Shown in pieces: positions 14,338 through 34,958 of a stretch of 64,000 bases of DNA. The stretch lies in NCBI GenBank assembly GCA_902627635.1, contig CACOKA010000001.1, positions 34,778-98,777 on the forward strand, written 5' to 3'. Under the pieces are notes generated by a model. That model was not told the origin of the DNA. It did not search any database and was given only the letters and a program-made list of their open reading frames with translations. Positions within the stretch are counted from its first letter, which is position 1. Each line of letters starts with the position of its first letter. This DNA comes from an uncultured Candidatus Actinomarina sp. Lineage in GTDB: Bacteria; Actinomycetota; Acidimicrobiia; Actinomarinales; Actinomarinaceae. Both the position numbers and the translations under genes were made by a program.

Positions 14338-14369
14338 AATAATTCAAAATCAAAGATATCCTTAATAAT

Positions 14370-15926: not shown

Positions 15927-15928
15927 AA

Positions 15929-16954: not shown

Positions 16955-17164
16955 ATTAATTTCTGCAATTCTTCCCGCAATAATTTGAAGATTACTCTCA
17001 ATTTCAGCCAATCTTGCCTGAGCTCTTTTGTTTGAATTTTCAGATATAAACTCTCTTGAAGAAGATAGAGATTTAGAAATATCATTAATTTCATTGAGAA
17101 TTTTTTCAATTTCTTGGTAAATTTCTTGTTTATTCATATTTTGGTAGATGTTTGTAAATTCCAT
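16943..17164 (-). CDS. Hypothetical 73-aa coiled-coil protein, divergent from the heliorhodopsin gene
   Basis: ORF with heptad-like charged/hydrophobic periodicity. No recognisable family. Confidence 0.3.
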   Translation of the reverse strand: MEFTNIYQNMNKQEIYQEIEKILNEINDISKSLSSSREFISENSNKRAQARLAEIESNLQIIAGRIAEINSVL

Positions 17165-17176
17165 ATTAATATGTGA

Positions 17177-18001
17177 GTGTCAAAGGGGGAAAATTTGATA
17201 TCTGAAAAAATCGGAAAACTTAGACGTTTTAACATCATCATGGGCTTCATGCATCTCATACAGGGTTCGGCATTGTTTTGGTTAGGAACTGTAGTCAATT
17301 CTGATTTTGTAGTCCCTATAACTCTTACACAACTAGTGGGCGAGGGTAGTCCAAATGACCCGTCATCATTTGCTCTAGTACCAAAACTTGAAATTTGGAG
17401 AGAGGTAACAAATTTTGGTCCAGCAGTAGCAACATTTTTATTAGCATCTGCAGTTGCACATTTTCTAATCTCAGGCCCTTTTTATGATAAATACAAAGAA
17501 GATCTTGGAAAAGGAATCAACAAGGTTCGTTGGATTGAATACTCAATAAGTGCATCGGTAATGATAGTTTTAATTGCACTGTTGGTAGGTATTTATGATA
17601 TCTGGGCATTACTAGGTATATTTTTTATGAATGCTGCAATGTGTTGGTTTGGATGGATGATGGAAGTCAACAATCAGTACACTGATAGAGTTGATTGGAC
17701 AAGCTATATCATGGGTTGTCTCGTTGGTGTTGCGCCATGGATTTTTATATTTATCAATTTAATTGGGGATGGTGTCGCAACAGACTCAAATCCACAAGGT
17801 GTACCGCAGTTTGTTGTTTGGATATTTGTAAGCATATTTCTATTCTTCAACACCTTTTCAATAAACATGGTCCTCCAATATAAAGGTGTAGGAAAATGGA
17901 AAGATTATCTTTATGGTGAGAGAGCATATATATGGCTTAGCTTATTAGCAAAGACAGCTCTTGCCTGGCAAGTATTTTTTGGAACTTACCAACCAAATTA
18001 A
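17177..18001 (+). CDS. Heliorhodopsin (inverted-topology microbial rhodopsin)
   Basis: 274 aa, 7 TM. Close match to my memory of heliorhodopsin 48C12: VRWIEYSISASVMIVLIA, and the C-terminal QYKGVGKWKDYLYGERAYIWLSLLAKTALAWQVFFGT with the TM7 lysine. GTG start. Confidence 0.8.
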   Translation: MSKGENLISEKIGKLRRFNIIMGFMHLIQGSALFWLGTVVNSDFVVPITLTQLVGEGSPNDPSSFALVPKLEIWREVTNFGPAVATFLLASAVAHFLISGPFYDKYKEDLGKGINKVRWIEYSISASVMIVLIALLVGIYDIWALLGIFFMNAAMCWFGWMMEVNNQYTDRVDWTSYIMGCLVGVAPWIFIFINLIGDGVATDSNPQGVPQFVVWIFVSIFLFFNTFSINMVLQYKGVGKWKDYLYGERAYIWLSLLAKTALAWQVFFGTYQPN

Positions 18002-18008
18002 ATTACTT

Positions 18009-18030
18009 GATTTTTCTAAATAGAAAAATC
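18009..18030. terminator. AT-rich palindrome between convergent heliorhodopsin and AlkP-like genes (possible bidirectional terminator)
   Basis: GATTTTTCTA-AA-TAGAAAAATC forms a 10-bp perfect inverted repeat. The stem is AT-rich and therefore weak. Confidence 0.25.
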
Positions 18031-18076
18031 ATGATTATTAAGACAAACATCATACCTATATAAGACAAAACCATAA

Positions 18077-19162
18077 TTAATTTACTATTTCAATCAAGGG
18101 AATATAAACCTCTGTCTTAGAAAGTCCTCCGTGATACCCTTTTAAGTTTGCACTTAGATGATTTGGAAAAATTATGTTTCCCTCATCTAGAAGAAAAATT
18201 TGCTCTGGATAAAAATTTTCTATATCTTCATTAGTAGCTGTACCTAATAAAGAGATTATTTCTTCTTTTTCTAAAAAATACCCTGGAACGTTCTTGAATA
18301 CTTTTTCAATGCTTTCAACATCCCCATTTATATATACTGCTCTTTGATCGCCATAAATTTTTACAGATTCATCATATTCAAGTCTAAATTTGTTTTGGTC
18401 TTCAATATTAACCACTCCATGGTCAGCAGTTATGCACGTATATCTATTTGAATCTATTTTTATCATTCTTGATAAAAATTCTGAAAAGATATTTACTTCA
18501 TTTCGCCATTCGTCACTATTTGTTCCATATACGTGTGCTGCAACATCAATCACTGGATAATATATGTAATTAAAGTGATTATCTAATATTTCGGATAAAG
18601 ATAAAATATTCTCAAGTTCATTTAAATTTTCATAGCCTATTTGATTCGCACCCATATATATGTGATCAGATAGAGGGCTACCGATTAAATTTTTTGGTTG
18701 AATAACATTGAAATTAATTTTATTTTGACTCAATATATTCCAAATAGTTTTTTGGGAAGAGAAAAAATCATTATTTTTTAAGTAAGTTTCAGAACCTTTC
18801 CAATTTAAGGTATTGATTAATTTATTTTCCTGTTTAGCAAAATGAAAATAACCAATCAAACCATTATCTATTGGTTTAGAAGCAAAATTAATTGAACTTA
18901 AGGCAACACTTGTAGAGCTAGGAAACGTAGAGACTATCTCATCGGTTTGGTTATTGGTAAATAAATTATCTAAATTTTCGATATTTTTGCTACCTAAGCC
19001 ATCAACTAAAATAAAGTTTATTTTTTTGATTGATTGATCGTACTTCTTTAGGACTAATTTTTGGTTAACATTAAATATCTTTTCTGAACAAATGTTATTG
19101 ATTAATACCTGTACAAGATCTGTTAGATTTGGAGAATCTAGAAAAAAATTATTTTTATCCAT
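18077..19162 (-). CDS. Alkaline-phosphatase superfamily protein (type I phosphodiesterase/nucleotide pyrophosphatase-like)
   Basis: Metal-ligand motifs ILVDGLGS near the N-terminus and ITADHG further in, typical of the AlkP/ENPP-like fold. Confidence 0.65.
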   Translation of the reverse strand: MDKNNFFLDSPNLTDLVQVLINNICSEKIFNVNQKLVLKKYDQSIKKINFILVDGLGSKNIENLDNLFTNNQTDEIVSTFPSSTSVALSSINFASKPIDNGLIGYFHFAKQENKLINTLNWKGSETYLKNNDFFSSQKTIWNILSQNKINFNVIQPKNLIGSPLSDHIYMGANQIGYENLNELENILSLSEILDNHFNYIYYPVIDVAAHVYGTNSDEWRNEVNIFSEFLSRMIKIDSNRYTCITADHGVVNIEDQNKFRLEYDESVKIYGDQRAVYINGDVESIEKVFKNVPGYFLEKEEIISLLGTATNEDIENFYPEQIFLLDEGNIIFPNHLSANLKGYHGGLSKTEVYIPLIEIVN

Positions 19163-19238
19163 AAAAAAATTTTACAAAAGAATTCCTCTGAAGTTTGAAA
19201 TAAAACTAAACTTTTTATGAGCATACTAAAGTTATTAT

Positions 19239-19604
19239 ATGATTTCTTATTTTCAGGATTACGTTACTGTTGGGGCAATGATAGGTCTCGGACTTGTCTT
19301 GTTTCTAGTTTTTATTTCCGTATCTGCATTACTTAGTCCCAAAAAACCAACTCCAGAAAAAGTTAAAACATACGAGTGCGGAGTAGATCCAGTAGGTGGT
19401 GGATGGAGCCAAACTTATGTTAGATACTATATATTTGGTTTATTATTTGTAATTTTTGACGTTGAGGCAGTATTTATTTTTCCATGGGCACTGAATCTAG
19501 AAAATCTTGGATACTTTGGCTTGGTTGAAATGTTTATCTTTATTTTTATTCTCTTACTTGGTTTGATATATGCAATTAGAAAGGATGTCCTCAAATGGGA
19601 GTAA
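19239..19604 (+). CDS. nuoA: Complex I subunit A (second, 11-subunit operon)
   Basis: 121 aa, 3 TM, YECG motif, [12 protein letters not shown]. Confidence 0.85.
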
Positions 19605-20092
19605 TTGAAAAGTTTGGTATCCCAAAGCCTATTTCTAAAATATTGAATTGGGCAAGAGCATATGATATGTGGTATTTCCAATTTGGTTTAGCATGCTGTG
19701 CCATTGAAGTTATGGCAGCAAGTGGACCAAGACACGATTTTATGAGATTAGGTATAATTCCACTTCCTGCATCGCCAAGACAAGCTGACCTAATGGTGGT
19801 TGCAGGTACCGTAACCGATAAAATGGCCCCAGCAGTCAAAAGATTATATGACCAAATGCCGGAACCAAAGTATGTAATTTCAATGGGTTCATGTTCAAAC
19901 AGTGGGGGACCGTATTGGGATTCTTACTCTGTTACAAAAGGTGTAGATCAATTAATTCCAGTAGACGTTTATGTTCCCGGATGTCCACCAAGACCAGAAG
20001 CTTTGCAAGAAGGAATAGTTTTATTACAGAAAAAAATAAAAGGTGAAGATATGAAAGAAAAGTGGAGAGAAAAAGACATTGAACCAGTCTGA
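19595..20092 (+). CDS. nuoB: Complex I subunit B (N2 [4Fe-4S] carrier)
   Basis: Cys ligands present: [18 protein letters not shown]. Confidence 0.9.
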
Positions 20093-20639
20093 TCAAAACG
20101 AATTCGTAAATTCAATTCAAAGTAAATTTCAAAATTCATCAGTTGAATTTGATACATTAAAAATTGAAGTAGATTCTCAGTCTTGGGTTGATACGCATAA
20201 GACATTGAAAGCAGAATTTAATTTAAAATTTTTTAATTGGCTATCTGCTGTTGACTGGGATAACGATGTAAAAATTGGTGACGCACCAAAAGAATCAGTA
20301 ATCCCAAGTTTTGAAATAATAAGTTGTTTATCAAAAACAAATTCTGACGACTTAGTTATATCATCTACAAAGATTTCAAAAGAGGAACCACAGATTGATT
20401 CATTAGTTGAAGTTTTTGGTGGAGCGAACTGGCATGAAAGAGAAGCTTATGAAATGTTTGGTATAAATTTCTTGAACCATCCAAATTTAAAGAAACTTTA
20501 TCTTCCTGATGCTTATGAAGGGAATCCTTTACTTAAATCATTTGAGTTGATAAGTAGAGAAGTTAAACCTTGGCCAGGTGAAGTTGATGTAGAAGGTATG
20601 CCAGAAGATAACAACGTAGTCTCAGAAGAGGGTAGCTAA
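20079..20639 (+). CDS. nuoC: Complex I subunit C (30-kDa subunit family)
   Basis: 186 aa with ERE(A/V)YDMFG-like motif [13 protein letters not shown]. Separate from nuoD (not a fused C-D). Confidence 0.8.
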
Positions 20640-21835
20640 TGGCTCAAACGATGGATCCAAACAATATGCCAATTTTATCTGAAGCATCAGTTTCTGTTGA
20701 AATTGAAACAGAAGATATGACTTTAAATATTGGTCCTCAACATCCTTCGACTCACGGTGTTTTAAGGTTAGTAGCTAAAATTAATGGAGAAAAAATATCC
20801 AGTGTTGAACCTGTGCTTGGATATATGCATAGAGGATATGAGAAACTTGCAGAAGTAAGAACTTATCCACAAGTAACAACATTAGTAAATAGAATTGACT
20901 GGGTTTCAGGTTTTGCGAATGAGATTCCATTTATCGCTGGTGCTGAAAAATTAATGGAAATCGAAGTACCTGAAAGAGCACAATACATCAGACTGATTTT
21001 GACAGAAATGGCAAGAATAAGCTCCCACTTTGTTTTTAACGGTGCTTTCCCACTTGAGATTGGTGCACTAACACCTATATTTTTAGCTATGGAAGATCGA
21101 GAAAGAGTTCTTGATTTGCTCGAATCTGTTACTGGTGGAAGATTTCATCCAAACTTTAATCGAATCGGTGGGGTAAAACCTGCCGCAGGTGCTGGGCCAA
21201 CAACAAAAAAAGATATACAGGATTTACCAGCAGGTTTTTATCACGATACCAAAGTTGCAATGCAAAAAGTTCTCGAAGCTGTTGATAGATTTGAAGATTT
21301 AATTGGCGGAAATGAAGTATTTCAACTTAGAACAAAGAATGTTGGTATATTACCAAAAGAAGTTGCGGAAGAGTACGGAGTATCTGGCCCAATATTGAGA
21401 GCATCTGGTGTTGAGTTTGATTTGAGAAAACAATCAAATTACTTACCATATGACAAATTTGACTTTGAAATACCAATTGGTGAAAATGGTGACTGTTTCG
21501 ATAGATGGGCTGTAAGAACATCCGAAATGAGAGAATCTGCAAAAATTATTTTACAAGCAATTGAAGACATGCCTTCTGGGCCAATCCAAGCAAAAGTACC
21601 AAAAGTTATAAAAGTTCCAAAAGGACAAACATATGTAAGAGCAGAAAATCCTAAGGGTGAAATGGGATATTATATAATTTCTGAAGGTGGTTTAGGGCCT
21701 TATAGGTTAAAAATAAGAACAGCTTCATTTAGTAACATATCAATTTTGCCAATAATGCTTGAAGGAGCATTGCTTCCTGACTTGATAGCAATAATGGGTA
21801 GTTTAGATTTTGTTCTTGGAGATGTAGATAGATGA
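20639..21835 (+). CDS. nuoD: Complex I subunit D (49-kDa/NiFe-hydrogenase large-subunit-like)
   Basis: NIGPQHPSTHGVLRLV N-terminal motif. 398 aa. Confidence 0.9.
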   Translation: MAQTMDPNNMPILSEASVSVEIETEDMTLNIGPQHPSTHGVLRLVAKINGEKISSVEPVLGYMHRGYEKLAEVRTYPQVTTLVNRIDWVSGFANEIPFIAGAEKLMEIEVPERAQYIRLILTEMARISSHFVFNGAFPLEIGALTPIFLAMEDRERVLDLLESVTGGRFHPNFNRIGGVKPAAGAGPTTKKDIQDLPAGFYHDTKVAMQKVLEAVDRFEDLIGGNEVFQLRTKNVGILPKEVAEEYGVSGPILRASGVEFDLRKQSNYLPYDKFDFEIPIGENGDCFDRWAVRTSEMRESAKIILQAIEDMPSGPIQAKVPKVIKVPKGQTYVRAENPKGEMGYYIISEGGLGPYRLKIRTASFSNISILPIMLEGALLPDLIAIMGSLDFVLGDVDR

Positions 21836-22812
21836 GTTTTAGTACCGAATTACTTATCAAAGTTTTGGTTGTTTTAGCTACAGCTCCAGCAATGGCCTTA
21901 GGGCTTACTTTGCTGGAGGTTAAAGGTTCTGCCTGGATGCAAAGAAGACCAGGTCCTCTTCATGTTGGTTTAAGAGGATTTATATTTCCACTTGCAACAG
22001 CTGCAAAATATTTACAAAAGGAAACAATCATTCCAAATGATGTTGATGAGCCTGTATTTAAGTGGGCACCAGCTTGGGTTATAGCAGCTGTAGTAGGCCT
22101 TTTTACAATTATTCCATTAAGTCCCACGTTAATTGTTCGTGATCTGGAATTAGGAGTCTTCTTTTTACTTGCAATCAGCTCCATCTCTACTATTGGAGTT
22201 CTTACAGCTGGATGGTCCTCTGCAAACAAATTTTCTCTAATGGGTGGTTTAAGAGCAGCAGGCCAACTTATTGCCTATGAATTACCACTAATTTTATCTG
22301 TAGTTGGTGTAGTTATACAAGCTGAAACTATGTCAACAGTTGGAATAGTAGAAAAACAGATTGAATTTGGATTTCCTTTTGTAATTGCAGGACAGGGTAT
22401 TGCTTTTATTATTTTTATGATTGCAGCAACTGCTGAAATGATGAGAACACCATTTGATATGCCAATTGGTGAATCTGAATTAACTATGGGCTTTTTTACA
22501 GAATATTCTGGGATTAGATTTCTTATTTTTTATATTTCTGAATACATAAATTTATTTGTAATGTGTGCGATTGCCTCAACTCTTTTCTTAGGAGGTTATC
22601 ATGTACCACTTTTACCTACTGAATGGGTTAACTTTTATGGTCCATTGGTTCTAATTGGAAAGACATTTTTACTTGCATTTATCCTTATTGCTATAAGATG
22701 GTCTTTCCCACGATTCAGGGAAGATCAACTTCAGACCCTTGCTTGGAAAGTCCTTATACCACTCTCTCTTTTGAATATAATGGTTACAGCAATCATGAAA
22801 GTTGTTTTTTGA
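21832..22812 (+). CDS. nuoH: Complex I subunit H. It directly follows nuoD, with no nuoE/F/G in between
   Basis: 326 aa with ND1 motifs (GLRGFIFPLA, TMGFFTEYSGIRF). Its start overlaps the nuoD stop by 4 nt. Confidence 0.9.
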   Translation: MSFSTELLIKVLVVLATAPAMALGLTLLEVKGSAWMQRRPGPLHVGLRGFIFPLATAAKYLQKETIIPNDVDEPVFKWAPAWVIAAVVGLFTIIPLSPTLIVRDLELGVFFLLAISSISTIGVLTAGWSSANKFSLMGGLRAAGQLIAYELPLILSVVGVVIQAETMSTVGIVEKQIEFGFPFVIAGQGIAFIIFMIAATAEMMRTPFDMPIGESELTMGFFTEYSGIRFLIFYISEYINLFVMCAIASTLFLGGYHVPLLPTEWVNFYGPLVLIGKTFLLAFILIAIRWSFPRFREDQLQTLAWKVLIPLSLLNIMVTAIMKVVF

Positions 22813-23297
22813 TGCAAAAATTCAAACCAAGGATTCCTGGATTTTTAACTGGACTTAAAATTGTCATTGGCAATATGTTTAAAACCCTTCTTCCTTTTTT
22901 TGAAAATCCTAATGTAAATTATCCTTTTGAAAAAGAAATACTCGCACCTAGAACTAGGGGTGTCATCGCTTTAGATTCTGAAGCATGTACAAGTTGCATG
23001 TTGTGTGCAAGATCTTGTCCAGACTGGTGCATTTACATAGAGGGTCACAAAGAGTTACAACCTCCTTCAAAGCCAGGAGGACGTCAGAGAAGTAGAGCGG
23101 TACTCGATCGGTTTGACATTGATTATGCACTTTGTATGTATTGTGGGATATGTGTTGAAGTATGCCCATTTGATGCATTGTTTTGGTCACCTGAATACGA
23201 ATATTCAGAATTTTCTATGGGCGATATGCTCCATGACAAAGATAGGCTTGATGAATGGCTAAAGACTGTTCCTGAAGGTCCAGGTTTAGAGAACTAA
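22812..23297 (+). CDS. nuoI: Complex I subunit I (2x[4Fe-4S])
   Basis: CTSCMLCARSCP and CMYCGICVEVCP motifs. ATG at 22812 overlaps the nuoH TGA (tgATG) and is in frame with track ORF 22698..23297. Confidence 0.85.
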   Translation: MQKFKPRIPGFLTGLKIVIGNMFKTLLPFFENPNVNYPFEKEILAPRTRGVIALDSEACTSCMLCARSCPDWCIYIEGHKELQPPSKPGGRQRSRAVLDRFDIDYALCMYCGICVEVCPFDALFWSPEYEYSEFSMGDMLHDKDRLDEWLKTVPEGPGLEN

Positions 23298-23815
23298 TGG
23301 AAGCAATAGACATATTTTCATACTTTCTTTTGCTGTTGCTTTTACTTAGTGGAGTAAAAGTTGTGACAACATCAAATGTTATACACGCTGCCATATTTTT
23401 AGTTTTTACTCTTGCTACCACTGCTGTTTTATTCATATTATTATCGGCTGAATTTGTAGCTTTAGTCCTAATACTTGTATATATAGGTGCAGTTATTGTT
23501 TTATTTTTATTTGGTGTGATGATCACAAGAGCTCCTTTAGGTCCAAATGCTGAACTAGATAATGATCAAAATAAATTATTGGCTGCTGTCATATCATTTT
23601 CAATTTTTGGAATATTTACTTATATTCTTCTACAAACTTTTGATTCAACAGTAGTTATAAGCGAAGGAACATCTACGAAACTATTAGGAGAAATTTTGTT
23701 AAGTAGATTTGTGTTTCCTTTTGAGCTGGTTTCATTTGTTTTGTTAGGAGCTTTAATTGGTGGCATTACATTAGCAAGAAAAGATAATGCATTAATGGAT
23801 GAAGATCAAATATGA
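23297..23815 (+). CDS. nuoJ: Complex I subunit J
   Basis: 172-aa membrane protein between nuoI and nuoK. Confidence 0.8.
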   Translation: MEAIDIFSYFLLLLLLLSGVKVVTTSNVIHAAIFLVFTLATTAVLFILLSAEFVALVLILVYIGAVIVLFLFGVMITRAPLGPNAELDNDQNKLLAAVISFSIFGIFTYILLQTFDSTVVISEGTSTKLLGEILLSRFVFPFELVSFVLLGALIGGITLARKDNALMDEDQI

Positions 23816-24117
23816 GCATTCAACCATTACTGATTGCAGCAGCAGCTTTATTCTCTATAGGTATTTATGGAATTCTTGTAAGAAGAAACGCAGTAATGGT
23901 TTTACTGTCAATTGAGCTGATTCTTAATTCGGTAAACATAAATTTTGTAGCATTCAACGCTATGCTTTCAGATGTTTTTTTAAATGGCCAGATTTTTTCA
24001 ATTTTCATTATCACTATTGCAGCAGCAGAAGTTGGTATTGGATTAGCTATTGTTCTTATGCTTTTTAGAAATCGAGAAACAGCCAATATAAATGAATTTG
24101 ATTTAATGAAATGGTAA
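23812..24117 (+). CDS. nuoK: Complex I subunit K
   Basis: 101 aa, ND4L-like (SIELILNSVNINF, AAAEVGIGLAIV). Confidence 0.85.
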   Translation: MSIQPLLIAAAALFSIGIYGILVRRNAVMVLLSIELILNSVNINFVAFNAMLSDVFLNGQIFSIFIITIAAAEVGIGLAIVLMLFRNRETANINEFDLMKW

Positions 24118-26129
24118 ATCAAAATTTTATAAATTTTCTTGCTGAAGGTCAGCCAGAATATACTGATGGTGGTGTACTCGCTGAATTTACTTGGTTGATT
24201 GTTGTACTTCCATTCTTAGCTGCAATTTTGATTACTTTTTTTGGAAAATATCTACCATTACAAGGTGCAGAGCTAGCTTTAGGAACAGTTTTATTCATAT
24301 TTTCATATAGCGCAGCTTTACTTTATCAGCACGCGACAAAAGGAATCGCCAATGAATTTTTTATCAACGTAGGAAGTATTGGTTCTTATGATCTTGAGTT
24401 TGGCTGGGTCGTTGATGGATTATCTATCATGATGTACTTCGTAGTTGGAACTGTTTCATCTTTAGTTTTCATATATGCAACAAATTATATGCAAGGTGAA
24501 ATAAGATATACTTTCTTTTTCACATCACTCACATTATTTGCTGGGAGTATGTTAGTTTTAGTTTCTTCTCCAACACTTTTGCAATTGTTGATTGGTTGGG
24601 AATTAGTTGGAGTTTGTTCATATCTACTAATTGGTCATTACTGGGAAAAAAAGGAAAATTCTTCCGCAGCGATGAAAGCATTTATAACTAATAAAATTGC
24701 TGATGTCGGGTTAATGATTGGAATCATTGTTCTTGCTTTATCAACAAAAACCTTGAGAATTTCTGAGATATTGTATCAATCAACTCATGATTATGCAGAT
24801 ATCAAAACTGTGGCATATTTAGGTGGAGTTCTTCTTTTTATAGGTGCAATGGGAAAGAGTGCTCAATTTCCACTTCATGTTTGGTTGCCTGATGCAATGG
24901 CAGGCCCAACACCAGTATCTGCTTTAATGCATGCAGCAACAATGGTCACCGCGGGTGTCTATCTTCTTGGTCGGATGTTTCCTTTCTACCAGGGAATGGC
25001 ATCACAAGCACTGGATATAGTTCTTTTATTCGGAGTAATTACACTTCTTGGAGCAGGATTAGTCGCTGTAGTTCAAGATGATCTCAAAAAAGTTCTTGCA
25101 TATTCTACAGTAAGTCAACTTGGTTACATGGTTACAGCAATGGGTTCAGGTGCATACACTGCGGGTCTTTTTCACCTATGGACTCATGCATTTTTTAAAG
25201 CTTTATTATTTTTAGGTGCTGGCTCGGTAATTCATGCAGTGCACACAAATAACATGTCTGAAATGGGTGGACTAAGGAAAGAAATGCCCAGAACATTTTC
25301 AACCTTCATTATTGGAACTGTAGCCCTTGCTGGACTTCCTCCATTAGCTGGATTTTTCTCAAAAGATGAGATACTCGCATCACTCAATCACGAAGGGCAT
25401 AATTTATATTTTATTATTTCTGTTCTTGGAGCCTTTATCACTGCGTTTTACATGACAAGAGCAGTTCTTTTAACATTTTTTGGTGACTATCGGGGTGATG
25501 GACACCCTCACGAATCTGACAAGATGATGACAATTCCATTGATAATATTATCAGGATTTGCCATTGTTGCAGGATGGGCAAACATACCTGGTGTTTATAC
25601 AGGATTTACAAAATGGGTTACAACAAGGAAAAATTACATTGTAGAATATCACCCTGAATCATTTGATTTGGTTGCTATGTTCAGTGGTCTTACATCTGGA
25701 CTTTTGGGTATTGGACTTGCCTACTACGTCTATCAGATGTCAGGAAATGCAACTGACGGCGATGAAAAAATTAAAATAAAACCAATATGGAATTTATTGG
25801 AAAATAAATACTACTTAGATTTCTTCTACTTCAAATTCATAATTGATCCTGTAAAAATAACTTTTGCTAAATTTGTTGACTCATTTAATTCAAATGTCCT
25901 TGATCGGTTTGTTAATGGTGTTGGGACAACTGCTTCAAAAGCAGGCGGAATTGTATATACAAATCTTGACCAAGGAGGCATTGACAAAGTACTTAATTTA
26001 TCATCAACAGGTACAGACACTATTGGAAGTAAAGTCAAATTAATTCAAACTGGTAAAACTCAACAATACTTAATGTATTTTTTAATAGGAGTGATAGTTA
26101 TTAGCTTAATAATTTTGTTAGTGTTATGA
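24111..26129 (+). CDS. nuoL: Complex I subunit L
   Basis: 672 aa with WLPDAMAGPTPVSALMHAATMVTAGV and QLGYMV. The long C-terminal horizontal-helix region is present. Confidence 0.9.
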   Translation: MVNQNFINFLAEGQPEYTDGGVLAEFTWLIVVLPFLAAILITFFGKYLPLQGAELALGTVLFIFSYSAALLYQHATKGIANEFFINVGSIGSYDLEFGWVVDGLSIMMYFVVGTVSSLVFIYATNYMQGEIRYTFFFTSLTLFAGSMLVLVSSPTLLQLLIGWELVGVCSYLLIGHYWEKKENSSAAMKAFITNKIADVGLMIGIIVLALSTKTLRISEILYQSTHDYADIKTVAYLGGVLLFIGAMGKSAQFPLHVWLPDAMAGPTPVSALMHAATMVTAGVYLLGRMFPFYQGMASQALDIVLLFGVITLLGAGLVAVVQDDLKKVLAYSTVSQLGYMVTAMGSGAYTAGLFHLWTHAFFKALLFLGAGSVIHAVHTNNMSEMGGLRKEMPRTFSTFIIGTVALAGLPPLAGFFSKDEILASLNHEGHNLYFIISVLGAFITAFYMTRAVLLTFFGDYRGDGHPHESDKMMTIPLIILSGFAIVAGWANIPGVYTGFTKWVTTRKNYIVEYHPESFDLVAMFSGLTSGLLGIGLAYYVYQMSGNATDGDEKIKIKPIWNLLENKYYLDFFYFKFIIDPVKITFAKFVDSFNSNVLDRFVNGVGTTASKAGGIVYTNLDQGGIDKVLNLSSTGTDTIGSKVKLIQTGKTQQYLMYFLIGVIVISLIILLVL

Positions 26130-26143
26130 GAGAGTGGTAAATA

Positions 26144-27721
26144 TTGAGTAGTTTTTCTTTTTTGGAGAGTGGATTAGGTTTAACCGTAGTAGTTTTTCTT
26201 CCCCTTGTATCTGCAATTTTTATATTCTTAATACCTAAGAAACAAGAGATGATAATTAAATTAGTAACTCTTGGATCTGCACTGCTTACTTTTGCAGTAA
26301 GTTTAATTGTTGCTTTGCAATTTGATTTTAATAACGCTGGTGACCTTCAGCTTGGCACTAAGGTCTCATGGATTAGTAGTATTAATTCAAATTATGAAAT
26401 AGGTATAGACGGTATTTCTTTACCTTTATTACTTTTATCTACTTTCATTTCTGTATTGGCAATTATTTATTCTTTTGAACATTTACCTGAACCAAAAAAT
26501 GCAAAAGGAATGATGTCTTTGATTTTAATTTTAGAAACTGGAATGAATGGTACATTTGTGGCATTAGATCTAATTTTATTTTTTGTATTTTTTGAACTTG
26601 TTTTACTACCAATGTATTTCATGATTGGTATTTGGGGAGATAAAACTGTCAGAAGTGTTTCTGGACTTAAGAATGATATTGAAACAAGACTTTATGCAAG
26701 TATTAAGTTTTTTGTATTTACATTATTTGGATCTGCTTTCATGCTTCTAGGATTCCTAGGTTTATATTTCAGGGGAAATAGAACATTTAGTATTCCAGAA
26801 CTAATTGAGCTTGGCTCTAGTGGAGCATTCACAGGTACATTTGCAACGTTAGTTTTTGCTGTTTTATTTTTGGGGTTTGCAGTAAAAGTACCAATGTGGC
26901 CACTACATACATGGTTGCCTGATGCACACACAGCTGCACCAACTGTTGGATCTGTTTTATTAGCCGCTATTTTGTTAAAACTTGGATCCTATGGTTTTGT
27001 AAGAATTGCTTTACCTATACTTCCAGAACAGGCTGTTGCTTGGGCTCCAGCTATTGCAGTGCTGTCAGCAATTGGAATAATATACGGTTCTCTTGCTTGC
27101 TTGGCACAAACAGATCTTAAAAGATTGATTGCATTTTCTTCAGTAGGACATATGGGCTTTGTAATGCTTGGGATATCTTCACTTACCTCAATAGGTATTA
27201 ATGCTGCAATGATTGGAATGGTTGCCCACGGAATAATTACTGGTTTATTGTTCTTTGTTTCTGGTTCTATGGCACATACTTATCACACTAGAGACATGGA
27301 AAGATTAGGTGGAAATATGAAACTTCTTCCAAAGACCGGAGCCATTTTAGCTTTTACAGCTATGGCGTCACTTGGCTTACCTGGATTGGCAGGATTTTGG
27401 GGAGAATTTATGGCTCTCCTTGGAGCGTACAATCCATTACCTGGTTTAAACATTACAATTTTTAGATCTTCCATGGTTGCAGGTGCAATTGGAACTGTTT
27501 TAACAGCAGGTTATTTATTATGGATGCTTCAAAGAGTTAATCTTGGTGAACCTAAAGAAGAATGGTTAGATAAAGAGCTTCATGATGCAGACAATTATGA
27601 GCTTGTTGCTTGGATACCTTTAGTAATACTTACTGTTCTAATCGGAGTATTTCCAAAACTTATATTTGGAGCAACTAATGATGCAGTTATTGCTTTGGTA
27701 TCTAAAGCGTTCGGAGGCTAA
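26144..27721 (+). CDS. nuoM: Complex I subunit M
   Basis: 525 aa with WLPDAHTAAPTVGS and AFSSVGHMGFV. Confidence 0.9.
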   Translation: MSSFSFLESGLGLTVVVFLPLVSAIFIFLIPKKQEMIIKLVTLGSALLTFAVSLIVALQFDFNNAGDLQLGTKVSWISSINSNYEIGIDGISLPLLLLSTFISVLAIIYSFEHLPEPKNAKGMMSLILILETGMNGTFVALDLILFFVFFELVLLPMYFMIGIWGDKTVRSVSGLKNDIETRLYASIKFFVFTLFGSAFMLLGFLGLYFRGNRTFSIPELIELGSSGAFTGTFATLVFAVLFLGFAVKVPMWPLHTWLPDAHTAAPTVGSVLLAAILLKLGSYGFVRIALPILPEQAVAWAPAIAVLSAIGIIYGSLACLAQTDLKRLIAFSSVGHMGFVMLGISSLTSIGINAAMIGMVAHGIITGLLFFVSGSMAHTYHTRDMERLGGNMKLLPKTGAILAFTAMASLGLPGLAGFWGEFMALLGAYNPLPGLNITIFRSSMVAGAIGTVLTAGYLLWMLQRVNLGEPKEEWLDKELHDADNYELVAWIPLVILTVLIGVFPKLIFGATNDAVIALVSKAFGG

Positions 27722-27777
27722 AAATTAACATTAATTATTTCGCTATATCAAGTGAATTAATAGTAATCCTAACGATT

Positions 27778-29205
27778 GTGGCTGCTATAACTTTAGATAT
27801 ACTATTACCAAGAAAATTTAAATTCATCATTGCAATGGTATCAATTCTTGGATCGCTATTTGCATTCCTTCCAATTATTTTTCAATTTGCCAACTATACA
27901 ACTCCAGAAATTATGTTTGAGGGAAGTTATGTAATTGATAAATTTTCCTTGATTCTTAAAGGCCTATTTATCTTGGTTACGTATCTGACATTTTTATTAT
28001 CCGTAAATTTTGTCGAAAGTGATGAATATTACCAGGGAGAATATTATTTTCTTCTGTTAAGTTCTCTCCTTGGAGCAATAGTAGTAACCTCTTCAAGAGA
28101 TTTATTAACAATGTTTATTGGAATTGAATTAGCTTCAACGCCAATGTTTCTTTTATCTGGATGGAAAAAAGGCGATCAAAAATCAAATGAAGGTTCAATT
28201 AAATTCTTTTTACTGGGAGTACTATCAGCATCTTTAATTCTTTATGGCTTTTCACTACTTTATGGAGTTACTGGAAAGTTAGTTTTTTCAGATATAGCTA
28301 ATATTTTAATTCAGCAGGATCTTGCCCAATCACCTGTTGCTTTATTAAGCGCAATACTTATTTTGGCGGGTATAGGCTTCAAGATATCGATAGTTCCATT
28401 CCACTCTTGGGCACCTGATACTTATGAAGGAGCACCTTTACCAGTAACGGCTTATCTATCTGTTAGCTCTAAAGCGACTGGGTTTGTTGCATTAATTATT
28501 TTGATGTCAAAAATATTTTTTGAATCTGGAGATGGATTAGGGATAATACTTGTATTCATTTCTGGAATAACAATGTTTGTTGGTAATTTATCAGCTTTAC
28601 AACAAACAAATCCAGTAAGACTTTTAGCATATTCATCGATTGCACAGGCAGGGTTTATTCTTGCGCCGTTAGCAGTTGCAAACATAACAAATAATTTTGA
28701 AGATGGTGTTTATGCAAGCGTTACGTATCTAATTATTTATGCATTTATGAATATAGGTGCATTTTTAGTGATTAATTTGTTACAAAGAAATATTGACTCA
28801 GAAAACATGTATGACTGGGGAGGTCTTGCAAAAGAAACACCATTAGCAGGAATTTTTGCAGTAATATTTTTCTTCTCTCTTGCAGGGATTCCACCTCTGG
28901 GAGGATGGTTTGCAAAATTTGTAGTTTTCAGAAGTTTACTAAGCACAGGTGAAATTTTTGGATTATCTCTAGCTGTAGTTGGTGCTATAAATGCTGTGAT
29001 AGGTTTGGTATATTATTCAAGAATTTCAAAAATTATATGGATGGATAGTCCAAAAGAAGATGTTCAAAAGACCGAAAATTCAATCATCCCAAGCCCACTA
29101 AAAGTTGTTGGTTTTGTAAGTTTAATTTTGACAATTGTCTCTGGAATTTTTCCAGGCATATTCAGCAATCTAGGTGAAGCTTCATCAATATTTTTTAATA
29201 GCTAA
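27778..29205 (+). CDS. nuoN: Complex I subunit N
   Basis: 475 aa with ISIVPFHSWAPDTYEGAP and LLAYSSIAQAGF. Confidence 0.85.
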   Translation: MAAITLDILLPRKFKFIIAMVSILGSLFAFLPIIFQFANYTTPEIMFEGSYVIDKFSLILKGLFILVTYLTFLLSVNFVESDEYYQGEYYFLLLSSLLGAIVVTSSRDLLTMFIGIELASTPMFLLSGWKKGDQKSNEGSIKFFLLGVLSASLILYGFSLLYGVTGKLVFSDIANILIQQDLAQSPVALLSAILILAGIGFKISIVPFHSWAPDTYEGAPLPVTAYLSVSSKATGFVALIILMSKIFFESGDGLGIILVFISGITMFVGNLSALQQTNPVRLLAYSSIAQAGFILAPLAVANITNNFEDGVYASVTYLIIYAFMNIGAFLVINLLQRNIDSENMYDWGGLAKETPLAGIFAVIFFFSLAGIPPLGGWFAKFVVFRSLLSTGEIFGLSLAVVGAINAVIGLVYYSRISKIIWMDSPKEDVQKTENSIIPSPLKVVGFVSLILTIVSGIFPGIFSNLGEASSIFFNS

Positions 29206-29209
29206 TTAA

Positions 29210-30244
29210 GTGGTAGAAAAAAAATTTATTGATTACCTCAAAAATAAATACAGTCAAAACTATTTATACTTTGATGAATTCATGCAGGAATGTCTTTACT
29301 CTGATTATGGATTTTTTGCAAAGGGTGAAGTCCGCTCTAGTACATCTGGTGATTTTTTAACTTCACCAGAAGTATCTAATTATTTTGGATTATTTATTTC
29401 AAACTGGATAAAAGAAAATAGAATCAATAGCAATTCAAATATACTTGAAGTTGGAGCAGGAACAGGTTCACTTGCGAATCAGGTGTCAAAGTATCTTGAA
29501 AAAGAAATCTATGTATCAGAAATTTCATTAAATGCCCTTAAAGCACTTAAGAATAAAAATTTTTTGGTTGATAGCAATTTAGACAACTTTGGTTCATCAC
29601 AGGTAAAAACTATTTATATGAATGAAGTGTTAGATAATATACCTTGTTCTGTCGGTATAGAAGTAGACAATACTTGGTATGAAAAAACAATTGAATTTAC
29701 AAATGATAATGAACTTAGATATGGAAAAGTAAAAATGCGTGAATCAAATCTTAAATGGATTAAAAAGTATAATTTTTTAGACAACCAAGATAATGAGCTT
29801 GAAATTCAATACAACACGGAACAATTTTTAGATGGACTCATCAAAAAAGTTGACCCAAATCATCTACTAATTTTTGATTATGGATTCGAATACGAAAAGA
29901 GAAATCTAAAACCATATAAATCATTAATTAGAACTTATAAAGAACATCATCTTTCAAGTGATCCAATAGAAATGCCTACGGAGACCGATATCACGTACGA
30001 TGTAAATTTTTCCTTTTTAAAACAATATTTTGAAGAAAATAATTTTGAATACAAAATTATGAAACAATATGAATTTCTTGATAAGTATGGTTACCAGGAA
30101 ATTTATTCAAGTTTAAAAAACCAATTTGTAGAAACTTATGGCGTAGACCAACTTAAATTAAAATCAGATATTGTTGGGCTAGAAGCAATACATAATGATC
30201 GTGGTCTAGGAGGTTTTTACTGTATTGAGGCCAAAAAACTATAA
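29210..30244 (+). CDS. MidA/NDUFAF7-family (DUF185) SAM-dependent methyltransferase
   Basis: SGDFLTSPEVSNYFGLF...W and ILEVGAGTGSLA motifs match the NDUFAF7/MidA signature (GDFITSPEISQ.FGEL, LVE.GPGRGTL). Starts 5 nt after the nuoN stop. Confidence 0.7.
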   Translation: MVEKKFIDYLKNKYSQNYLYFDEFMQECLYSDYGFFAKGEVRSSTSGDFLTSPEVSNYFGLFISNWIKENRINSNSNILEVGAGTGSLANQVSKYLEKEIYVSEISLNALKALKNKNFLVDSNLDNFGSSQVKTIYMNEVLDNIPCSVGIEVDNTWYEKTIEFTNDNELRYGKVKMRESNLKWIKKYNFLDNQDNELEIQYNTEQFLDGLIKKVDPNHLLIFDYGFEYEKRNLKPYKSLIRTYKEHHLSSDPIEMPTETDITYDVNFSFLKQYFEENNFEYKIMKQYEFLDKYGYQEIYSSLKNQFVETYGVDQLKLKSDIVGLEAIHNDRGLGGFYCIEAKKL

Positions 30245-30268
30245 GCCAGATAAATTATAATTAAAAAT

Positions 30269-31108
30269 ATGAATGTTTTAAAAACTACTACTTTATTAAC
30301 GCTTATGACTGTTTTAGTAATATTTACTGCTCAAGCACTGGGTTTTGATCTTATTTTTTCTTTGTTCTTTGCTTTTCTCTTTAATTTCATAATGTATTTT
30401 TATTCATCTCGAATAGCACTTGCTTCAACCAGAGCAAGAAAAATTGAAGATGGAGAATATGATGAGGTTAGAGAAATAATTACTTTTCTTGCACAAAAAG
30501 AAAAAATGCCAATGCCTGAACTTTATGTAATCGAAAGTGACCAACCAAATGCGTTCGCTACAGGAAGAAATCCAAAAAATTCTGCTGTTGCTGTTACAAC
30601 AGGGATTATGAAAGTTCTAAATAGAGATGAGCTTGAGGGTGTTCTAGCTCATGAATTATCACATATCAAAAATAGAGATATCTTAGTATCAAGTATCGCA
30701 GCGATGCTTGCAGCTGCAATTTCATTTATGTCAAGAATGGCTTTTTGGGGCGGGGGACAGAGAGATAGAGGAACACATCCATTTATTATCTTGATAGCAT
30801 TTATCGCAGCGCCTATTGCATCTTTAATAATTAGATTGGCAATATCAAGAACTAGAGAATATGGAGCAGACAAAACAGGTTCTTCCATATCTGGAAATCC
30901 ACTAGCATTAGCCTCAGCTCTTGAAAAGATTGAGATGTATTCAAAAAACCCATTGAATGTTAATCCGGCCGTTAGTCAGTTGTTTATATCTGATCCTTTA
31001 AAATCATTTACTGGTTCTGGATTGAGAAAATTGTTTTCTACCCACCCACCAACTAAAGAAAGAGTAAGAAGGCTCAGAGAGGAAGCTAGTGGAATTAGAT
31101 ATAGATAA
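30269..31108 (+). CDS. htpX: Zinc metalloprotease HtpX (M48)
   Basis: N-terminal TM helices, HELSHIKNRD zinc motif, and a conserved C-terminal region. Confidence 0.9.
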   Translation: MNVLKTTTLLTLMTVLVIFTAQALGFDLIFSLFFAFLFNFIMYFYSSRIALASTRARKIEDGEYDEVREIITFLAQKEKMPMPELYVIESDQPNAFATGRNPKNSAVAVTTGIMKVLNRDELEGVLAHELSHIKNRDILVSSIAAMLAAAISFMSRMAFWGGGQRDRGTHPFIILIAFIAAPIASLIIRLAISRTREYGADKTGSSISGNPLALASALEKIEMYSKNPLNVNPAVSQLFISDPLKSFTGSGLRKLFSTHPPTKERVRRLREEASGIRYR

Positions 31109-31448
31109 TACTGGGGACTCAACAGGTGTTTTTCCAAATGAACTAGATACTAAATTATCATCGGGCTGGAGTTTGATAGATGTTAGGGAAGATGATGAAT
31201 GGACATATGGACATCATCAGCAAGCAAAACATATAAAGATGAGTGAAGTACCAGAAAGCTTAGAATTATTTGATCAGGAATCTTCTTATATTATTGTATG
31301 TAGATCAGGTCACAGATCAGGCAAGGTTTCAGAGTATTTAAATTCGCTTGGTTATCAATCTTATAATCTTATTGGTGGAATGAAAAAGCTCTCCAATGAA
31401 TCTAATAAAATCGTCGGTTCTGATGGAAATCCAGGTATTATCATTTAA
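31089..31448 (+). CDS. Rhodanese-domain sulfurtransferase
   Basis: LIDVREDDEW...IIVCRSGHRSG is a rhodanese active-site loop (CRSGHRS). GTG start overlaps the htpX end. Confidence 0.75.
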   Translation: MELDIDNTGDSTGVFPNELDTKLSSGWSLIDVREDDEWTYGHHQQAKHIKMSEVPESLELFDQESSYIIVCRSGHRSGKVSEYLNSLGYQSYNLIGGMKKLSNESNKIVGSDGNPGIII

Positions 31449-31457
31449 AATCAATTT

Positions 31458-32417
31458 GTGATTATTTGTATTGGAAATGCACTTGTTGATTCACTTCAAC
31501 AAATCGAAGAAGATGTTATTAATAAACTAAACCTTAACAAAGCAAGAATGACTCTTGTTGATAAAGAGAGATCAAACTTTTTACTTAACAATATGCAAAA
31601 CCCGACTTATGCTGCAGGAGGCTCTGCAGCAAATACGGCTTATTGGATAGCGGCCTTAGGAGGTTCCGTAGGATTTATTGGTAAAATCTCAGATGATGAT
31701 CTTGGAAAACAGTTCAGGTCAAGTTTATCTGAGCATGGGCTCAGTGACTTTACAGTTCTTGAAGAAGAAAATGAACAAACTGGATTGTGTGCAATTTTTA
31801 TAACACCAGATGGTGAACGAACAATGAATACATATTTAGGAGCTGGTGCCCAGTTATCAATGGGAGATCTTAATGAGGAGTCTATAAAAAATTGCAACAT
31901 TTTATATATGGAAGGTTATTTGTGGGACAGGTTACCAAGCAAAGAAGCATTTATGTATGCATCATCGATAAATAAACAATCTGGTGGAAAAAATGCTTTG
32001 TCTTTATCAGATGTTTTTTGTGTTGAAGCACATAGAGAAAGTTTTGTTGATCTAATAAAAGAAAATATAGACTATGTATTTTGTAACGAAGATGAAATAA
32101 AAGCCCTTACAGAACAGCAATCCATTGAAAAGTCATTAGATTTTATAAATAAAAATTTTCCTAAACTTGATCAACTTATATGCACATTAGGAGCTAAAGG
32201 GGCCATAGTTATGAAAGAAAATATACAGTATTTCTTTGAAGCTACAGAAGCAAAGGTTGTTGATAAAACAGGTGCAGGGGATTATTTTGCTGCAGGATAT
32301 TTATTTGGAATAGAAGAAAAATTATCTCTGCAGGAGACTGCATTAATTGCAAATAAAAGTGCTGCCCATGTAATTAGTGAAATTGGAGTAAGGCCAGAAA
32401 AGCCATTTAATCTTTAA
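31458..32417 (+). CDS. PfkB-family carbohydrate/nucleoside kinase (adenosine-kinase-like)
   Basis: N-terminal GG motif region (AAGGSAANTA) and C-terminal DKTGAGDYFAAGYLFG signature. Confidence 0.8.
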   Translation: MIICIGNALVDSLQQIEEDVINKLNLNKARMTLVDKERSNFLLNNMQNPTYAAGGSAANTAYWIAALGGSVGFIGKISDDDLGKQFRSSLSEHGLSDFTVLEEENEQTGLCAIFITPDGERTMNTYLGAGAQLSMGDLNEESIKNCNILYMEGYLWDRLPSKEAFMYASSINKQSGGKNALSLSDVFCVEAHRESFVDLIKENIDYVFCNEDEIKALTEQQSIEKSLDFINKNFPKLDQLICTLGAKGAIVMKENIQYFFEATEAKVVDKTGAGDYFAAGYLFGIEEKLSLQETALIANKSAAHVISEIGVRPEKPFNL

Positions 32418-33358: not shown

Positions 33359-33435
33359 AAACTAATCCTAATCAAATTAAATTACCTCTTACGAAAATTC
33401 ATATTTAATCTAAACTTTAAAAATGACTAATTTTT

Positions 33436-33517
33436 GCCGGGATGCCCGAGCGGCCAAAGGGAGCAGACTGTAAATCTGCCGGCTATGCCTACGTAGGTTC
33501 GAATCCTTCTCCCGGCA
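33436..33517 (+). tRNA. tRNA-Tyr (GTA), type II with long variable arm
   Basis: Cloverleaf read by eye: acceptor GCCGGGA/TCCCGGC, anticodon loop cuGUAaa, long variable arm, T-loop GGTTCGAAT. No encoded CCA. Confidence 0.85.
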
Positions 33518-33520
33518 CAC

Positions 33521-33593
33521 GCCCTCTTAGCTCAGTTGGTAGAGCACTTCCATGGTAAGGAAGAGGTCTCCGGTTCAATCCCGGAAGAGGGCT
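33521..33593 (+). tRNA. tRNA-Thr (GGT)
   Basis: Acceptor GCCCTCT/AGAGGGC, D-arm TAGCTCAGTTGGTAGAGCA, anticodon loop atGGTaa, T-arm GGTTCAATCC. Confidence 0.85.
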
Positions 33594-33620
33594 CACAAGT
33601 CTATAATTAGTTTTAGATTT

Positions 33621-33694
33621 GGCGGCGTAGCTCAGTTGGTAAGAGCGCACGACTCATAATCGTGAGGTCGGCAGTTCAAGTCTGCCCGCCGCTA
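33621..33694 (+). tRNA. tRNA-Met (CAT), elongator type. A lysidine tRNA-Ile2 cannot be excluded
   Basis: GGCGGCGTAGCTCAGTTGGTAAGAGC..., anticodon loop cuCATaa, T-arm GGCAGTTCAAGTCTGCC. Confidence 0.8.
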
Positions 33695-33716
33695 CAACAA
33701 AATAAAGGAGAAAATA

Positions 33717-34945: not shown

Positions 34946-34958
34946 CTAAGAGGTAATT

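Follow-up and report, generated by a model that had tools for sequence, protein, structure and literature searches.

Introduction

Since at least 2011 it has been asked how electrons enter a complex I that has no NADH-oxidising module (N-module; NuoE, NuoF and NuoG), a question that the locus described here does not settle. We analysed a stretch of 64,000 nucleotides from an uncultured Candidatus Actinomarina sp. (contig CACOKA010000001.1, positions 34,778 to 98,777 of the forward strand; G+C ∼33%), hereafter the window. It carries an eleven-gene nuo cluster without nuoE, nuoF or nuoG (19239..29205; its product is called Nuo11, and its subunits NuoD-11 and so on), which starts 12.5 kb downstream of a second nuo operon, of the canonical 14-gene type (Nuo14).

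The locus itself is already known, since Lopez-Perez 2020 (PMC7771536) and Bulzu 2021 (bioRxiv 10.1101/2021.02.01.429150) both describe the same arrangement. The former reported that all Actinomarinales have two nuo clusters, with heliorhodopsin and iron-uptake genes between them, one of the two being an 11-gene cluster without nuoEFG, for which use of F420 in the manner of Methanosarcina Fpo was suggested (their Fig. 5B and C). The latter described a unit composed of afuABC, heliorhodopsin, nuoABCDHIJKLMN, NDUFAF7, htpX, pspE and adenosine kinase, called the enzyme 'ancestral' with reference to the 11-subunit type that Moparthi and Hagerhall had described, and noted a 14-subunit copy nearby. 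A text search of the two papers found no mention of tryptophan at the quinone-ligand position, of the copy-specific arginine or of the kinship with orphan NuoD2 proteins. The possibly new details that we report are thus a quinone site with Trp in place of Tyr, a copy-specific Arg accompanied by what appears to be a dedicated methyltransferase, and a link to the nuo2/nuoD2 genes of Streptomyces. Nuo11 takes up ∼1% of a 1-Mb genome in an organism that ranks among the most abundant and the most streamlined marine actinobacteria, and because so much of a streamlined genome is spent on it, it must matter to the cell.

Organization of the eleven-gene cluster

Profile searches with Pfam and NCBIfam models assigned eleven tightly packed open reading frames (ORFs) at 19239..29205, on the plus strand, to the expected families in the order nuoABCD-HIJKLMN, which is the cluster that the original prediction had read from the letters and a list of ORFs. 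E-values of the eleven family matches range from 1e-25 to 1e-182, and the spacing between neighbouring genes from -20 to +56 nt. The genes, with protein lengths in amino acids (aa), are as follows.

19239..19604, plus strand: nuoA, 121 aa; PF00507, E = 6.5e-36; Asp/Glu motif FDVEAVF kept
19595..20092, plus strand: nuoB, 165 aa, carrier of cluster N2; PF01058, 2.8e-29; NF005012, 230 bits against a cut-off of 116
20079..20639, plus strand: nuoC, 186 aa, TTG start; PF00329, 5e-29; 186 aa also in metagenome gene calls
20639..21835, plus strand: nuoD, 398 aa; PF00346, 3.7e-84
21832..22812, plus strand: nuoH, 326 aa; PF00146, 8.7e-96
22812..23297, plus strand: nuoI, 161 aa, with two [4Fe-4S] motifs, CTSCMLCARSCP and CMYCGICVEVCP; TIGR01971, 1.2e-25
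23297..23815, plus strand: nuoJ, 172 aa; PF00499, 6.4e-32
23812..24117, plus strand: nuoK, 101 aa; PF00420, 5.7e-28; SIELIL and AAAEVG, both membrane Glu kept
24111..26129, plus strand: nuoL, 672 aa, lateral-helix region present at the C-terminus; NF005141, 609 bits against a cut-off of 556, 1.4e-182
26144..27721, plus strand: nuoM, 525 aa; TIGR01972, 536 bits against a cut-off of 264, 8.3e-161; FFELV, KVPMWPLHTWLPDA and FWGEF
27778..29205, plus strand: nuoN, 475 aa, GTG start; TIGR01770, 357 bits against a cut-off of 333, 1.7e-106

The start of nuoI is most likely the ATG at 22812, which gives the 161 aa also found in metagenome gene calls, and not the upstream ATG at 22698. Where nuoD (20639..21835) meets nuoH (21832..), the sequence reads ...AGATGAGT..., in which an ATGA forms a 4-nt overlap, and no ORF lies between them; there is therefore no space for nuoE, nuoF and nuoG, and the profile search detected no 2Fe-2S_thioredx, Complex1_51K or NuoG domain anywhere in 19239..32417. 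This overlap and the missing slot had been noted before, as had the separate nuoC and nuoD genes, the retained cysteines of NuoB and NuoI and the completeness of the membrane arm, and the profiles together with direct reading of the sequence bear out all of these points. NuoB-11 has the N2-ligand region including the CC doublet, as well as PGCPP, and NuoI-11 has both CxxCxxCxxxCP motifs, such that the ligands for iron-sulphur clusters N2, N6a and N6b are all present. NuoD-11 lacks the cysteine pairs of [NiFe] hydrogenases, both the N-terminal GPQHPSTHG and the C-terminal LDFVLGDVDR being free of Cys.

The pumping machinery is likewise retained. Aligned to NdhF1 of structure 6HUM, NuoL-11 keeps Glu in transmembrane helix (TM) 5, Lys in TM7, His in TM8, Lys in TM11 and Lys/Asp in TM12, while alignment of NuoN-11 with its Nuo14 paralog shows that the Glu/Lys/Lys/Lys set is kept. 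Across NuoL, NuoM and NuoN the conserved pump residues are Glu in TM5, Lys in TM7, His or Lys in TM8, and Lys or Glu in TM12, and the Glu-rich loop between TM5 and TM6 of NuoH-11 is also kept. We regard the identity and integrity of this operon as close to certain. Its transcription signals were uninformative: promoter-like sites in 16900..33600 numbered 52, compared with 74 in shuffled sequence, terminator-like sites were weak, and the DNA is AT-rich.

Sequence affinity of the Nuo11 subunits

The original prediction had likened the architecture to that of the ferredoxin-dependent photosynthetic or cyanobacterial NDH-1 complexes and to archaeal Fpo/Fqo. The likeness held for gene content and failed at the level of sequence. 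For every Nuo11 subunit the best NCBIfam model was one for bacterial Nuo, with the Ndh and Fpo models lower. NuoD-11 scored 452/429 bits with Nuo models, 353 with NdhH and 336 with FpoD, the last two being well under their cut-offs. Scores and cut-offs for the Fpo models were 336/600 (FpoD), 235/475 (FpoH), 373/1050 (FpoL), 98/145 (FpoK), 73/220 (FpoC) and 48/180 (FpoI), and those for the Ndh models 353/583 (NdhH), 57/302 (NdhI), 479/963 (NdhF) and 65/175 (NdhJ). Since the Nuo models win and the Ndh and Fpo models remain far below their cut-offs, what Nuo11 shares with Fpo and NDH-1 is limited to its set of genes, and by these profile scores Nuo11 is a bacterial Nuo, not an Fpo or an NDH-1. 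The quinone-site signature, described below, also differs from that reported for Fpo.

Conservation, selection and age of Nuo11

The nuo11 gene order was found in at least eight independent contigs, comprising six near-identical marine metagenome contigs and two from a divergent lineage of Actinomarinales (L087 and L088), in which NuoD is 81% identical to that of the window. When the window was compared with one of the related contigs (L002), the nine genes from nuoC to nuoN showed 170 synonymous and 13 non-synonymous differences, and per-gene ratios of non-synonymous to synonymous substitution rates (dN/dS) in three comparisons were 0-0.26, indicating strong purifying selection. The eleven Nuo11 proteins are 31-52% identical to their Nuo14 paralogs, and because the identity is so low the two sets are taken to be old paralogs that neither recent duplication nor misassembly would explain. 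The original prediction had itself raised the possibility of a recent duplicate or a chimera. That Nuo11 is an assembly chimera or a decaying, functionless duplicate is refuted by the same gene order on independent contigs from many samples, by the dN/dS values, by the intactness of every catalytic motif and by retention of the operon across Actinomarinales genera and other Acidimicrobiia; nothing was found in favour of this explanation, to which we attach practically no probability.

One stretch of L002, at 2765..4070 (nuoI-J-K; window 22812..24117), has synonymous divergence (dS) of 0.31-0.34, compared with 0.03-0.08 in the flanking nuo genes. L002 is otherwise 98% identical to the window, and the patch is nearly without amino-acid change; it looks like a recombination import from a more distant population.

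The companion 14-gene operon

The window begins within the other nuo operon.

1..6728, plus strand: 3' part of a canonical nuoA-N operon; truncated nuoH (3..428), nuoI (439..1050), then nuoJ, nuoK, nuoL, nuoM and nuoN

The original prediction had taken this for a second, separately encoded nuoH-N set, an interpretation that did not survive comparison with close relatives. We searched genome contigs with the Nuo14 NuoI (439..1050) and found it in single-cell genomes and metagenome-assembled genomes (MAGs) of Candidatus Actinomarina (Actinomarinales, Acidimicrobiia), with 100% identity in L007 and L008, whose DNA is 97.3% and 95.3% identical to the window, respectively. The 8 kb of L008 that lie upstream of the position of the window's first base contain nuoA, nuoB, nuoC, nuoD, nuoE (2Fe-2S_thioredx), nuoF (Complex1_51K), nuoG and nuoH, and nuoA to nuoH precede the set in L007 as well. 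Because these relatives carry nuoA-H before it, the 1..6728 set makes up the 3' half of a 14-gene operon. The position of nuoE, nuoF and nuoG relative to this set, which had been proposed as a check, is directly upstream in close relatives; the three genes lie upstream in 71 of the 80 related loci, and most of the remaining nine (seven by one reading) have too little upstream DNA to reveal them. The organism holds one N-module, encoded in the Nuo14 operon.

An exact-sequence search with the Nuo14 NuoN returned no match. Related NuoI sequences also occur in MAGs labelled Flavobacteriaceae, Chloroflexota and Gammaproteobacteria (94% identity in L012, 84% in L050 and 64-65% in L069 and L072); L012 and L050 are probably mis-binned contigs of Actinomarinales, and L069 and L072 probably mis-binned contigs of other Acidimicrobiia.

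A modified quinone site and a linked methyltransferase

For comparison of functional residues, NuoD-11 was mapped by alignment to Nqo4 of Thermus thermophilus (4HEA/2FUG). His39, equivalent to T. thermophilus His38, is kept, and the other two members of the canonical His38/Tyr87/Asp139 triad are replaced: the quinone-headgroup ligand Tyr87 by Trp88 (20900..20902, in VNRIDWVSG) and Asp139 by Glu140 (21056..21058). The triad is thus incomplete in NuoD-11, although it characterises complex I in general and does not strictly define Nuo11. All of the Actinomarinales NuoD homologs among the matches listed (120/120) have Trp in place of Tyr87; they are 81-100% identical to the window protein. NuoD-11 also has Arg65 (20831..20833, in HRGYEK) where Thermus has Thr64. 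At the positions of Trp88 and Arg65, the NuoD of Nuo14 from this type of organism carries Tyr and Thr, respectively.

The mitochondrial methyltransferase NDUFAF7 dimethylates Arg85 of NDUFS2. Arg65 corresponds to this residue by offset against the 430-residue bovine NDUFS2 chain, and of the two NuoD copies only NuoD-11 keeps the NDUFAF7-target Arg. Downstream of nuoN, four further genes follow in the same direction.

29210..30244, plus strand: NDUFAF7/MidA-like methyltransferase (Methyltransf_28), 4 nt after nuoN; PF02636, 1.6e-22
30269..31108, plus strand: HtpX protease, conserved co-directional tail
31089..31448, plus strand: rhodanese, conserved co-directional tail
31458..32417, plus strand: PfkB-family kinase, conserved co-directional tail

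Matches of the methyltransferase to entries in PDB were weak, namely a DUF185 protein (1ZKD) and an NDUFAF7 homolog (5ZTZ). Its linkage to NuoD recurs across Actinomycetota: a Methyltransf_28 gene follows nuoN in L001, L087, L092 (18961..19986) and L093, precedes an orphan nuoD2 with a 4-nt overlap in Kitasatospora (L091, 9003..11164), and precedes an orphan nuoD2 at a distance of 2 kb in another actinobacterial genome (L089, 6860..11182). The window and Kitasatospora methyltransferases share only 25% identity. The HtpX-rhodanese-PfkB tail is kept in the divergent Actinomarinales lineage (L087) and not in the other Acidimicrobiia (L092 and L093); as judged from these gene orders, the conserved unit is Nuo11 plus the methyltransferase. 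Since NuoD-11 alone combines the Arg with a linked methyltransferase gene, the likely substrate is the NuoD of Nuo11 and not that of Nuo14, and the enzyme probably matures NuoD-11 by methylating Arg65.

Relationship to actinobacterial Nuo2 and NuoD2

Among 1.84 billion cluster representatives we found no full-length NuoD with an identity to NuoD-11 between ∼50% and 81%; many 'representative' sequences that are 50-78% identical proved to be frameshifted fragments and were left out of inference. The best full-length NuoD relative outside Actinomarinales was P0123, at 46% identity, which could be located only on a 2.9-kb contig, and a search for exact matches to P0220 returned none. In other Acidimicrobiia, including sequences labelled Ilumatobacteraceae, NuoD is 56-61% identical and has the Trp; one such gene (P0484) belongs to a cluster that has all of nuoABCDHIJKLMN together with a Methyltransf_28 gene and whose flanks are unrelated.

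The original prediction had proposed to place the operon by phylogeny among the Nuo14, NDH-1, Fpo and Fqo clades. This was done for NuoD, with a different outcome: in a distance-based neighbour-joining tree of 115 sequences, built without support values, NuoD-11 joins a group of orphan NuoD2 proteins (with RHDWLSA), and the Nuo14 NuoD falls in a distant, Tyr-bearing clade. Members of the NuoD2 group are encoded by stand-alone nuoD genes whose source names include Nocardioides, Kitasatospora, Streptomyces, Actinoallomurus and Streptosporangiaceae, and both the Trp and the Arg of HRG.EK are present in 119/119 NuoD2 homologs examined. An affinity with Fpo by way of the Trp found in two archaeal NuoCD fusions (Methanofastidiosia and Methanonatronarchaeales) was considered and rejected, as the fusions lie elsewhere in the tree.

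Streptomycetes have a full nuoA-N, a nuo2 operon (A2, B2, H2 to N2) and a separate nuoD2 (PMC8388888). On the evidence of NuoD, the only one of the eleven subunits through which the kinship was traced, Actinomarina Nuo11 is the single-operon form of this actinobacterial 'Nuo2' system. The same comparison bears on the Y87W replacement in NuoD of piericidin-producing Streptomyces, which was read as self-resistance (Degli Esposti 2015, PMC4758237). Since Trp is universal in NuoD2, the replacement may reflect the NuoD2 paralog, and may thus be a trait of the paralog and not of toxin producers.

It is conceivable, if rather doubtful, that Nuo11 represents an Actinomycetota-wide second complex I, in which Tyr87 would be replaced by Trp throughout the lineage (with Asp139 replaced by Glu as seen in the window NuoD), which would be the only copy with the Arg, and which the methyltransferase would always adjoin. 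If true, it would provide a bacterial counterpart of the arginine-methylation step of mitochondrial complex I, and a naturally 'Tyr-less' enzyme that departs from canonical complex I in its donor (ferredoxin or F420H2), in its acceptor chemistry or in its direction. The literature on nuo2 function in Streptomyces that we found consists of transcriptome mentions only. The closest relatives outside Acidimicrobiia belong to culturable genera (Streptomyces, Kitasatospora and Nocardioides), and since these are genetically tractable, the function of Nuo11, the role of the Trp and the predicted Arg methylation are testable there.

Candidate electron donors

According to our proposal, Nuo11 would assemble as an L-shaped, redox-driven proton pump, in which electrons would enter at NuoI (N6a), pass N6b and then N2, and reduce menaquinone in the membrane at the modified quinone site (Trp88 and Glu140), Arg65 of NuoD-11 having been methylated by the co-transcribed methyltransferase. 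The donor would be a soluble low-potential carrier and not NADH, namely reduced ferredoxin, for example from 2-oxoacid:ferredoxin oxidoreductases, docking on NuoI. On the present analysis a ferredoxin-type carrier is a tentative leading guess; the proposal as a whole, a redox-driven pump working from ferredoxin to menaquinone, we consider plausible and still somewhat more apt to be wrong than right. A ferredoxin-type carrier is favoured over a shared NuoEFG, and that over F420H2.

The original prediction had concluded that the donor is supplied in trans. This idea is reasonable, and no donor module lies in or next to the cluster: we found no gene for a flavoprotein, a ferredoxin or an FrhB-like protein in or beside nuo11 in any of the four lineages examined, and neither the whole 64-kb window nor the DNA flanking related loci has an FpoF/FqoF (FrhB-like) gene. 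What it had not considered is that the NuoEFG of Nuo14 might be shared. Ferredoxin is the current view for the 11-subunit enzymes of Desulfitobacterium and cyanobacteria (PMC11238625). In the sister order UBA5794 the tricarboxylic acid cycle runs via 2-oxoglutarate:ferredoxin oxidoreductase in ∼85% of genomes (PMC12008989, whose supplements are confined to that order). In NuoI, the loop that joins the two cluster motifs (23055..23081, residues ∼82-90) is basic in Nuo11 (KPGGRQRSR) and acidic in Nuo14 (EDNPEEQPISPGE); an acidic carrier might dock on the basic loop, which we count as weak support. Isoelectric points of the NuoB, NuoC, NuoD and NuoI paralogs did not discriminate between donors, and the supplements of PMC7771536 contain no table of ferredoxin, F420 or nuo genes.

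Several considerations weigh against ferredoxin and menaquinone as the partners of Nuo11. Neither ferredoxin nor flavodoxin nor a ferredoxin-reducing enzyme has been shown for Actinomarina itself, no whole-genome search having been made, and the organism is aerobic, with a full NuoEFG encoded close by. F420 is the preference of those who described the locus (PMC7771536). Y87W mutant enzymes are severely lowered in decylubiquinone reduction (PMC4758237), and because such Tyr-to-Trp mutants reduce this quinone poorly, normal quinone reduction by Nuo11 cannot be assumed. Moreover, Nuo11 is known here from its genes, from which its expression and assembly are presumed.

Because the organism has an N-module in its Nuo14 operon, a live alternative is that this single NuoEFG docks on either quinone-reducing module (Q-module), which would make Nuo11 a second NADH:menaquinone oxidoreductase isoenzyme; the Trp88 site might then confer, for example, different kinetics or insensitivity to natural quinone-site toxins. 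The nuoEFG genes lie ∼20 kb upstream in the same genome type, streptomycetes with nuo2/nuoD2 also have a full nuoA-N (PMC8388888), the idea has a precedent in PMC4453560, and Y87W has been tied to inhibitor resistance in mutant enzymes (PMC4758237). We nevertheless judge sharing to be unlikely. The Q-module subunits that would contact NuoG share no more than 33-52% identity with their counterparts in Nuo14 and differ from them in length (Nuo11/Nuo14: NuoI 161/204, NuoC 186/135 and NuoD 398/451 aa), and the Nuo11 of other phyla works in genomes without a dedicated NuoEFG (PMC3144371, PMC11238625). More improbable again is the Fpo-like F420H2 dehydrogenase of Lopez-Perez et al., in which an FrhB/FpoF-type subunit encoded elsewhere would feed the 11-subunit core. 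Actinomarinales do encode F420 biosynthesis and F420-dependent oxidoreductases, and identity to Fpo of Methanosarcina mazei reaches 35% (PMC7771536), but any complex I would reach as much, all subunits score higher with Nuo models while the Fpo scores stay far under their cut-offs, the NuoD-11 site (His, Trp, Glu) differs from the reported FpoD signature, and no FpoF- or FpoO-like gene occurs in or near the cluster in the four lineages.

A further explanation takes the altered quinone site as its starting point. The complex might run mainly in reverse, proton-motive force, generated in part by the cell's proton-pumping rhodopsin, and menaquinol together driving reduction of a low-potential carrier, or the acceptor might be something other than menaquinone. 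The replacements of Tyr87 by Trp and Asp139 by Glu, the first of them without exception in the Actinomarinales homologs listed, speak for this explanation, and the operon lies beside a heliorhodopsin gene in most lineages of an organism that is a rhodopsin photoheterotroph (PMC7771536). Against this, the explanation is pure inference, heliorhodopsin is replaced in one Actinomarinales lineage and absent in other Acidimicrobiia, and the same Trp occurs in soil actinobacteria without that lifestyle; we rate it the least probable of those discussed here.

Genomic neighbourhood

The two nuo operons are separated by heliorhodopsin and iron genes, the latter (10965..16954) also included in the published descriptions.

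10965..11678, minus strand: DtxR-type iron-dependent repressor
11961..13007, minus strand: ferrochelatase
13098..14258, 14370..15926 and 15812..16954: Fe3+ ABC transporter, binding protein, permease and ATPase, respectively
17249..18001, plus strand: heliorhodopsin, between the two nuo operons; PF18761, 9.8e-90; 250 aa in metagenome gene calls

The heliorhodopsin gene lies 1.2 kb upstream of nuoA, beyond a phosphodiesterase-like gene (18077..19162, minus strand). Its slot is occupied in L087 (7077..7457) and L088 by a gene for a low-molecular-weight phosphatase (LMWPc); because of this replacement in one Actinomarinales lineage and its absence elsewhere, heliorhodopsin is a variable neighbour. 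Further downstream, a tRNA cluster at 33436..33695 (Tyr, Thr, Met) is followed by a Trp tRNA at 34872..34946 and then by nusG (Pfam match). A long run of co-directional ORFs at 35262..63232 includes candidate rpoB and rpoC genes (38170..45485), the rest being a candidate ribosomal-protein cluster. From the tRNA genes to the end of this run the coding is wholly on the plus strand and the GC skew is positive throughout.

Comparison with known complex I systems

Canonical Nuo14 has its N-module in the operon, whereas the Actinomarina Nuo11 cluster does not. It shares this lack with the 11-subunit enzymes of Firmicutes, Chloroflexi, Bacteroidetes and Chlorobi, which have the same nuoABCDHIJKLMN content, no N-module, no Cys ligands for [NiFe] and ferredoxin as the supposed donor (Moparthi and Hagerhall 2011, PMC3144371; Desulfitobacterium, PMC11238625), and a listing from 2011 already included an 11-subunit complex I in Actinobacteria (PMC3144371). 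These enzymes differ in that most of their representative NuoD sequences keep Tyr87 (Tyr in 100 and Trp in 33 of the 152 aligned) and in that there is no report of a methyltransferase linked to them. The nearest NuoD relatives outside the actinobacterial clade are at most 48% identical.

Cyanobacterial and plastid NDH-1 resembles Nuo11 in having 11 homologous core subunits and no NuoEFG, and the best match of NuoL-11 among solved structures is NdhF1 (381 bits). NDH-1 requires the extra subunits NdhL to NdhV, including NdhS for ferredoxin binding. None of the subunits specific to oxygenic phototrophs (NdhL, NdhM, NdhN, NdhO, NdhS and NdhV) is encoded in the nuo11 cluster, and NdhH, unlike NuoD-11, keeps the Tyr. 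Fpo/Fqo likewise has an 11-subunit core without NuoEFG, and its models gave the lowest scores of the three model types. Fpo has the additional subunits FpoF and FpoO. FpoD of Methanosarcina has Tyr87 and lacks His38 and Asp139 (PMC4758237), and NuoD-11, with its His, Trp and Glu, shows the opposite pattern to the one reported.

A further parallel is Streptomyces, where nuo2 is a second complex I gene set without nuoEFG beside a full nuoA-N. Streptomyces NuoD2 is ∼46% identical to NuoD-11, falls in the same clade, has the same Trp and Arg, and adjoins a Methyltransf_28 gene. The two systems differ in arrangement: in Streptomyces nuoD2 stands apart from nuo2 and forms a pair with the methyltransferase gene, and the published gene list has no nuoC2 (PMC8388888), whereas Actinomarina has all eleven genes and the methyltransferase together in one cluster.

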